A program made the position numbers and the translations under genes. DNA of 63,174 nt, filler included, from Neolecta irregularis DAH-3 (taxonomy: Eukaryota): assembly GCA_001929475.1 (NCBI GenBank). It is 12 parts of 12 records of this genome, joined end to end, with 100 filler letters (N's around TTAATTAATTAA, not from the genome) between each part and the next. Parts side by side here need not be neighbours in the genome. Positions count along the whole stretch, not along the records: positions 26,118 to 44,525 come from LXFE01001345.1; 11 more parts are not named here. One strand, written 5' to 3'. Shown here piece after piece: positions 26,946-28,310 of this stretch (its first letter is position 1; every line of letters begins with the position of its first letter). The notes below the pieces were generated by a model. It had not been told where the DNA came from. It did not search any database and was given only the letters and a program-made list of their open reading frames with translations.

Positions 26946-28310
26946 TTATTTTTCTGTTGTAATAGTTATATCCATAATCTTAGCAGAACCAGTTCGTAAT
27001 CGGCTTTGGTAGAGTTTTGTTTTAAATGTACGGGCTGGTTCGATCTTCCCTTTTACATCAGAGACGATCATTGCCATAATATCTCTAAAGAATGGTAAAG
27101 CATATTCCGATACCTGAAAATTAGTAGTTTCGGATTGATCAGGATGCATGAATAAGTCTACCACCGTTAGAACAAGTTTTGCTATCATCATTTCCGGGTC
27201 CTCATTTTTGAAACTACGGGGTCCAGCATCGCCGAATTTAGAATCCTCAATAGAATATGTGTAGCCATGTTGAGTCGTATAGTGTAAAAATATTTTTGAA
27301 AATATTGTGAATTGTTTATCCCAATAATTTTGGGACACTGTGGTATCATAAAAATTGAATACGTGTGCGGAATGCTTATCAGACCCACGGCCCCATATGA
27401 TAAAATACACTCCGGGGATAGGGAAACCGACGAGTAGCTGCAGATCTTTTTCTTCAAAAATAATAGCCTTATATTCCTCCCAATAACGAATGGCAATGCC
27501 TTTGCGAATATTCGTGCCGAATATTTGTAGAAAAGTCAACGCCATAAAATGTGAGCACTCGATGGAAGAGCATCTTTTCGAAGGCACAGACCATGAAACT
27601 AGGTTCGTGCTAATCATTTGAGTAGCCGTCTTTTCTAGGGTTTCCGGATCGATTTTGCGGTGTTTCTTCATTCCCTCTCCATTTTCGGTGCGAGGTTTTT
27701 CTTGACCTTTGACATTTGACTGAATAATATTCATAAATTTTGTTGCTACCGGGGTGGGATTTATCGCAATTTTCCTGCACGAGCGTAAAAGAGGGAGATA
27801 GACTTTTTCTCTGTCCACCGAAGAAAATACAGAAGCTCCCCCATATTTTTCTAAAACATCCTTGGCCCACTCATCTCCTGATTTAGTTCGCATATCGTGA
27901 GAAAGTTCTTGGAGAGAAAATGTTCATCGTTCCTGAATACTAGAATATCAGACTTTCCATTCAATCGCAGGTGCTTACTTATATACTGCTGTCAGAGCTC
28001 TAAATGGACCGCCTAGCTCTGTAACAATCTCTGATGAAGAGGTGCGAAATTTCATACAACCGTAATGATCGTTTACGCATATTACGATAAACGACTTGCA
28101 CACATACTCACTTAAGAGGCATTGCCCTGCACACATAGTTGTTGCAACTTCTTCATTCATATCTTTCACCCACCACAATTTGTCTACATCAGACTGAAAA
28201 AGTACATTTTGTGGAAAATCATCGTTCGATTTATCGAAATGATCGAGATAAGAGGCAGTGCAAATAACGTTCGCATGGAGTGCGATCAGCAAGAAGAGCT
28301 TTGTCAACAT
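26946..28310 (-). CDS. Candidate secreted effector: signal peptide + Cys-rich PAN/apple-like domain + papain-fold-like domain; one 39-nt intron and one in-frame TGA at 27924-27926 (possible pseudogene, or two separate ORFs)
   Basis: The 111-aa signal-peptide ORF and the 315-aa ORF become co-frame after splicing GTAAGC..CTGATATTCTAG (27940-27978); C113/H177/D192 pattern in the 315-aa part. Confidence 0.6.

Follow-up and report, generated by a model that had tools for sequence, protein, structure and literature searches.

A spliced, prematurely interrupted gene for a putatively secreted PAN-like protein in Neolecta irregularis

The window, that is, the whole analysed stretch of 63,174 nucleotides of N. 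irregularis DNA, carries on its minus strand two open reading frames (ORFs) lying in the same frame: ORF1 (28310..27975, 111 aa) and ORF2 (27893..26946, 315 aa), separated by three in-frame stops. The cysteines of ORF1 are residues 17, 60, 64, 71, 78 and 85. A first-pass annotation had read the pair as one protein composed of a signal peptide, a Cys-rich module and a 315-residue region; all of these parts are present, but the three stops show that they do not lie in a single open frame. The ORF2 motifs it had quoted are found at the residues given, with IECSHF starting at residue 111 (C113), AHVFNFY at 176 (H177, N180) and NYWDKQ at 189 (D192, Q194). The features of the locus are collected in Table 1.

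Table 1. Features at the two-exon gene and its immediate surroundings (positions in the window).
Feature	Position	Strand	Basis or remark
Artificial contig linker (44 N, 12-nt six-frame-stop spacer, 44 N)	26018..26117		One of 11 identical
High-copy repeat at contig end, downstream of the gene	26120..26349		Summed word depth 19616 vs 484 for the neighbouring gene
Exon 2: linker, then 315-residue region, ending in TAA (26948-26946)	26946..27939	-	ORF and X2 contigs
Codons of His177 ... Asp192-x-Gln194	27312..27365	-	
Codon of Cys113 (proposed nucleophile of the 315-residue region)	27555..27557	-	
In-frame TGA, codon 116 of the spliced frame	27924..27926	-	X1 record 3 (DNA) and X2 record 10 (spliced), both with 0 differences
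39-nt intron, GTAAGC...TAG, length a multiple of three	27940..27978	-	Absent from X2 record 10, present in X1 contigs
Exon 1: start codon, signal-peptide-like N-terminus, Cys-rich PAN-like module	27979..28310	-	ORF; X2 contig 27979-28312, 0 differences, joined to 27939
Cys cluster C60-x3-C64-x6-C71-x6-C78-x6-C85, PAN-like core	28056..28133	-	Cys positions and Protein Atlas neighbours
Signal-peptide-like segment, residues 1-19	28254..28310	-	Lys4, hydrophobic core 5-16, small residues at -3/-1 before Ser20
High-copy repeat upstream, between the gene and the NF-X1/R3H gene	28420..28649		Summed word depth 18368 vs 484

Separate contigs make up the window, joined by linkers at 13617-13716, 17823-17922, 19082-19181, 24480-24579, 26018-26117, 44526-44625, 52804-52903, 54895-54994, 56593-56692, 59174-59273 and 60665-60764, so arguments from gene order or context that reach across a linker are void. 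Because of the linker at 26018-26117, neither the rDNA at 19170-24000 nor the GC-rich block at 24580-26017 is a true neighbour of the gene. The rDNA occupies its own contig on the plus strand and comprises the 3′ part of the SSU rRNA (19170-19983), the 5.8S rRNA (20206-20359) and a complete LSU rRNA (20591-24000); the GC-rich contig has 62% G+C, a strong GC skew and overlapping ORFs on both strands, and four of its ORFs scanned gave no Pfam match. Further along the window, one contig carries two 317-codon terpene-synthase ORFs on the plus strand (44691-45644 and 51396-52349; Terpene_syn_C_2, E = 9e-19 and 5e-18) with a DUF1604/G-patch gene between them (48218-49336), and another begins at its very edge with the ORF of a Harbinger-type DDE_Tnp_4 transposase (52904-53761, plus strand, E = 2e-22).

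The contig of the gene itself spans 26118-44525. There the gene is preceded by an NF-X1/R3H gene, and a protein kinase, an Ulp1 fragment and MutS follow further along. The Ulp1 (Peptidase_C48) ORF fragment, at 37593-38117 on the minus strand (E = 6e-8), represents a genuine thiol protease of another clan. The view that this is a fungal gene agrees with the CCT-beta sequence of the window, whose best matches among those with a name are early-diverging fungi, including Neoconidiobolus, Gigaspora, Basidiobolus and Mortierella-like organisms, at 78–83% identity.

The two repeats on either side of the gene reach about 40 times the word depth of the neighbouring single-copy gene and hold many contig break points, and they share no similarity with one another. 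The downstream repeat has many loose ends at 26229/26230 and is similar over short lengths to 46069-46180 and 222-267; within the upstream one, a variant at 28629 occurs in up to 44 contigs. A scan of 36 long ORFs revealed no reverse transcriptase or integrase, and within 26118-29100 the gene is not bracketed by long repeats, direct or inverted. An LTR next to the gene, and with it the accessory locus suggested by the first-pass annotation, thus finds no counterpart here, the left flank being an artificial linker. We also rejected a transposon origin of the gene, since no transposase, reverse transcriptase or integrase lies in or beside it and it possesses a probable signal peptide and an intron.

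Two public runs cover the stretch: X1, which consists of DNA contigs, and X2, whose contigs are cDNA-like; neither is recorded as RNA. Over the NF-X1/R3H gene, X2 record 11 (7034 nt) follows the genomic sequence with 0–1 differences per piece and skips five GT..AG segments of 33–39 nt, all of which are kept in the X1 contig. X2 thus lacks introns retained by the X1 DNA contigs and appears to behave as cDNA. The NF-X1/R3H gene (29066-30608, minus strand) has at least five such introns, a length unusually short for a fungus. At 31043, in the NF-X1 gene, the sole X2 contig present reads T in place of C (plus strand), so the source of X2 is near-identical, not identical, to that of the window.

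In the gene under study, X2 record 10 covers 27979-28312 and 27624-27939 with 0 differences and skips the 39 nt in between, a segment comparable in length to the 33–39-nt introns of the neighbour. The remainder of the second exon is in part covered as well, the gap-free X2 contigs being 27624-27939 (0 differences) and 26727-27275 (2 differences). Splicing out the intron removes two of the three stops between the ORFs and leaves a frame of 1326 nt, or 441 codons, in phase and with a single internal stop. The gene is real and spliced, and the window copy is interrupted. With a TGA at codon 116, this copy encodes a putatively secreted product of at most 115 residues, made up of the signal peptide, the Cys module and five further residues. 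The 315-codon frame behind the TGA is fully open and could therefore be translated alone from the Met at 27893, without a signal peptide. An altered genetic code, in which TGA would be a sense codon, was considered and rejected: long Pfam-supported ORFs remain open under the standard code, and the host is fungal.

Codon usage agrees with a coding function. Log-odds scores, for which ten ORFs of the window with Pfam support (themselves scoring 0.11–0.275) served as the training set, amount to +0.118 for ORF2 and +0.116 for ORF1 in the reading frame, while the other five frames of each are negative. The longest ORF obtained in 300 shuffles of the 2.9-kb region was 185 aa, compared with the 315 codons of ORF2.

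Related, diverged copies of the gene exist in DNA run X1. Many contigs align over 26350-28420 at less than 95% identity, and the summed depth there is 1–8 times that of the neighbouring gene (332–3698 vs 484 in X1), a quantity that is not a copy number; no second copy was found within the 63,174 nt of the window. One related X1 contig has a sense codon in place of the TGA, along with two differences within 8 nt, which makes a single fused frame the ancestral state. The fused secreted protein probably exists in other copies, not in that of the window. In the one related copy for which the surroundings of C113 were read (93 nt, from the listed differences), a 1-nt deletion is offset by a 1-nt insertion so that the frame is kept, and both Cys108 and Cys113 are retained, with 7 of 31 residues differing, His115 among them. 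The same copy gives no alignment at ≥85% identity over 27276-27386, where H177 to Q194 are encoded. At the other end of the protein, three differences listed for related contigs in the signal-peptide segment, read by hand, are two synonymous changes and one Ala/Val exchange.

The N-terminus of ORF1 has the hydropathy of a plausible signal peptide, as the first-pass annotation had supposed: beyond Lys4, the residues up to position 16 are strongly hydrophobic, and the first 11-residue windows have mean Kyte–Doolittle values of 1.4–2.3. Secretion of the family is probable. The module that follows was recognized by Protein Atlas, a search on language-model features, with a score of 2459 (threshold 2300); of its 30 matches, 28 belong to the PAN_1 set, with a top score of 0.94 and 170–173 of 256 features shared, which makes them a lead rather than an alignment. 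PAN modules are defined by four cysteines with bridges C1–C4 and C2–C3 (PMC3338822), and by inspection C60-x3-C64-x6-C71...C85 fits this pattern, C78 being an extra residue that brings the number of cysteines to five instead of four.

ORF1 produced no Pfam match at E ≤ 10, PAN models included, its sole match among PDB sequences was unrelated (E = 0.66), and a search for relatives of the 111 residues returned one scored candidate and none at E ≤ 1. A PAN fold has a helix packed against a sheet; an AlphaFold 2 (AF2) model of the module, in which a helix at 53–61 is followed by three strands, has a pLDDT of 35.2, too low for a fold call. The PAN-like module of the first-pass annotation consequently stands on its Protein Atlas neighbours and Cys pattern and does not stand as a profile match; judging from the former two, we regard the module as somewhat more probably PAN-like than not. 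PAN modules often come to light through weak profile matches alone; for Sclerotinia Ss-Sl2 the assignment was made from weak HHpred matches and the four-Cys pattern alone (PMC3338822).

The 315-residue region has no detectable relatives. It matched no family in Pfam (E ≤ 1 and E ≤ 10), NCBIfam (E ≤ 10) or PHROGs, though matches weaker than about E = 0.1 may have been lost to the HMMER filters. Among 5.8 billion clustered proteins, 334 candidates were scored and none reached E ≤ 0.001; a reading of all 1,835,955,588 representatives, bacteria included, returned 0 relatives; and metagenome contigs yielded 30 pattern matches, none of which stood up to tblastn. A phmmer search of PDB sequences gave one match, the cathepsin L propeptide 3f75_P, at the chance level of E = 0.2. 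Protein Atlas recognition of ORF2 was 927, below the threshold of 2300, and its neighbours were left unused.

Single-sequence AF2 modelling of the region gave a pLDDT of 40.6 with almost no residue above 60, too low for fold assignment. For what the low-confidence model is worth, it places a helix at 110–125 and five strands within 133–182, the last of which (176–182) contains H177, and puts D192 in a helix. A Foldseek search of this model against the PDB returned no matches at E ≤ 0.001; its weak rows (E ≥ 0.05, query-normalised TM ≤ 0.18), headed by GNAT acetyltransferases at TM 0.16, were disregarded since the model is poor.

The first-pass annotation had proposed this region as a candidate papain-fold toxin or deamidase, possibly acquired horizontally. 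Put as a hypothesis, the region would be a papain-fold hydrolase that has diverged strongly from Tox-PL1-, NlpC/P60- or deamidase-like enzymes, with C113 at a helix start and H177 on a strand, and it would be directed by the PAN module to the surface of a host or competitor; we consider this very unlikely. C113, H177 and D192-x-Q194 do stand in the order C-H-DxQ, but the Tox-PL1 signature in the literature is NC-H-DxQ (PMC3482391), and here a Glu rather than an Asn precedes C113. The pattern C-(20..150)-H-(5..60)-DxQ arose in 1009 of 5000 shuffles of ORF2, so the catalytic-looking residues are no more than chance would give; the NC form, absent from ORF2, arose in 50 of 5000, and adding HxxN reduced the number to 53 of 5000, for a pattern picked after seeing the sequence. 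The order of elements in the AF2 model, a helix at 110–125 and then five strands with H177 in the last, can likewise be likened to the papain-like core, which comprises a helix starting right at the Cys and then 4–5 antiparallel strands, the second bearing the His and the third a polar residue (PMC10318531). However, H177 falls on the fifth strand of this poor model, D192 lies in a helix instead of in the strand after the His, and the weak top rows of Foldseek are not papain-like folds. Judged by eye, the strand-turn-His-strand stretch that begins at residue 161 looks rather like the His hairpin known from NlpC/P60- or C39-type enzymes. Retention of Cys113 in one related copy, while adjacent residues changed, would also suit a nucleophile, but the segment with the His and Asp is too diverged between copies for an 85% alignment, and if the protein is secreted all eight cysteines of its full form could be paired. 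Neither a papain-like family in Pfam or NCBIfam at E ≤ 10 nor a PDB sequence was matched, and the zero relatives among 1.84 billion representatives, bacteria included, leave horizontal acquisition unsupported. ‘Glutamine deamidase’, the label that the first-pass annotation gave to Tox-PL domains, is also the one used by Pfam. Tox-PL1 itself is described as a bacterial peptidase of T6SS, T7SS or RHS contexts with an Imm35 immunity partner (PMC3482391); ORF2 shares with it the order Cys, His, Asp-x-Gln, yet it lacks the Asn before the Cys and a profile match, and none of these contexts applies to a spliced fungal gene, which has no bacterial relatives and whose neighbours are fungal housekeeping genes. 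A bacterial polymorphic toxin system would be marked by bacterial origin, trafficking or repeat domains and an immunity gene next door, a description that this gene does not match. An architectural parallel is offered by modular secreted proteases of Aphanomyces, among which a subtilase–PAN protein and papain-like proteases fused to CBM1, ML or CAP domains have been described (PMC10084794). These combine a binding module with a hydrolase, the very architecture proposed in the first-pass annotation, but in them the catalytic domain belongs to a family that Pfam recognises and the binding module sits at the C-terminus, whereas here there is no family match and the PAN module is N-terminal. To our knowledge, PAN-plus-hydrolase fusions are rare in fungi. 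That the domain of about 325 residues is a previously unseen, extremely diverged papain-like thiol hydrolase, delivered outside the cell by PAN, with Cys113 at the start of a helix, His177 in a strand-turn-His-strand hairpin and paralogs diversifying rapidly, is a long shot; if true, it would found a family of fungal toxins or wall-modifying enzymes that are secreted and combine binding with catalysis. The cathepsin propeptide match would suggest the opposite role, with residues 187–229 of ORF2 forming an I29-like inhibitor module and the family acting as secreted inhibitors of cysteine proteases, not as proteases. The match aligns residues 187–229 with 38–82 of the 3f75_P chain and has FGD in common, and the AF2 secondary structure of this segment is helix, coil, helix; but an E-value of 0.2 is what two PDB searches would yield by chance, Pfam, which includes an I29 model, has no match at E ≤ 10, and Phe is the only residue of the long-helix motif in common in the printed alignment, all of which makes an inhibitor extremely unlikely.

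Other readings concern the gene model as a whole. The window copy could specify two products, a secreted PAN-only protein of 115 residues ending at the TGA and a cytosolic 315-residue protein starting at Met 27893. The TGA occurs in both DNA and spliced contigs, the downstream frame is open for 315 codons with coding-like codon usage, and it starts with ATG; however, both parts lie on a single spliced contig in a single frame, and the related copy with a sense codon at the stop site points to an ancestral fused frame. Reinitiation after an ORF of 115 codons is unusual in fungi and also counts against two products, which we therefore hold to be unlikely. It is similarly improbable that the locus is not protein-coding at all and that the ORFs arose by chance in a repeat-rich transcribed region. 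This would fit the lack of relatives of any kind, the low Protein Atlas recognition of ORF2, the poor structure models (pLDDT 40.6 and 35.2) and the high-copy repeats on either side, but it is at odds with 441 codons containing one stop, an intron whose 39-nt length preserves the frame, codon scores that are positive in the reading frame only, a related copy that keeps the frame across compensating indels, and the failure of all 300 shuffles to produce an ORF of 186 codons.

We therefore favour, with a probability of roughly 0.6, the reading that this is one two-exon fungal gene of a small, diverged and species-restricted family of secreted proteins, the window copy of which is stopped at codon 116. 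Intact members of the family would be secreted proteins of about 440 residues, consisting of a signal peptide, a PAN/apple-like binding module with four to five cysteines and a domain of about 325 residues without detectable relatives. The window copy appears to be transcribed and spliced with its premature TGA just past the intron, and we infer that it either yields a secreted PAN-only protein of at most 115 residues or is a young pseudogene.

By analogy with PAN modules, which bind protein or carbohydrate (PMC10084794), the family most likely acts extracellularly, where it may bind a carbohydrate or protein ligand on the cell wall, a host or a substrate surface; the C-terminal domain would add a further activity. 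Secreted and cell-wall PAN/apple proteins, such as Sclerotinia Ss-Sl2, oomycete CBEL and the microneme proteins of apicomplexans, have the same layout of a signal peptide and then a small Cys-patterned module, whose low sequence identity lets it escape ordinary searches. The window gene differs from them in having one five-Cys module with no Pfam match, fused to an orphan domain of about 325 residues, and in being cut by a stop directly after the module. It also resembles the lineage-specific multi-copy families of candidate secreted effectors in fungi. Shared with these are the lack of relatives beyond a single genome, the presence of several diverged copies, some of them broken, the contrast between a conserved signal-peptide end and a variable interior, and nearby repeats; the difference is that the window gene adjoins housekeeping genes (NF-X1/R3H, kinase, Ulp1 and MutS) on its own contig.

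If this reading of a two-exon gene with an interrupted window copy is true, it would add one more lineage-restricted family of secreted proteins from a poorly studied fungal lineage, which would not be surprising. For annotation, the locus would be of value for its very short introns, for an unannotated gene family and for a copy caught soon after a nonsense mutation. The finding would gain weight if the orphan C-terminal domain were an enzyme, and a domain without a relative among 1.84 billion representatives would constitute a new sequence family.
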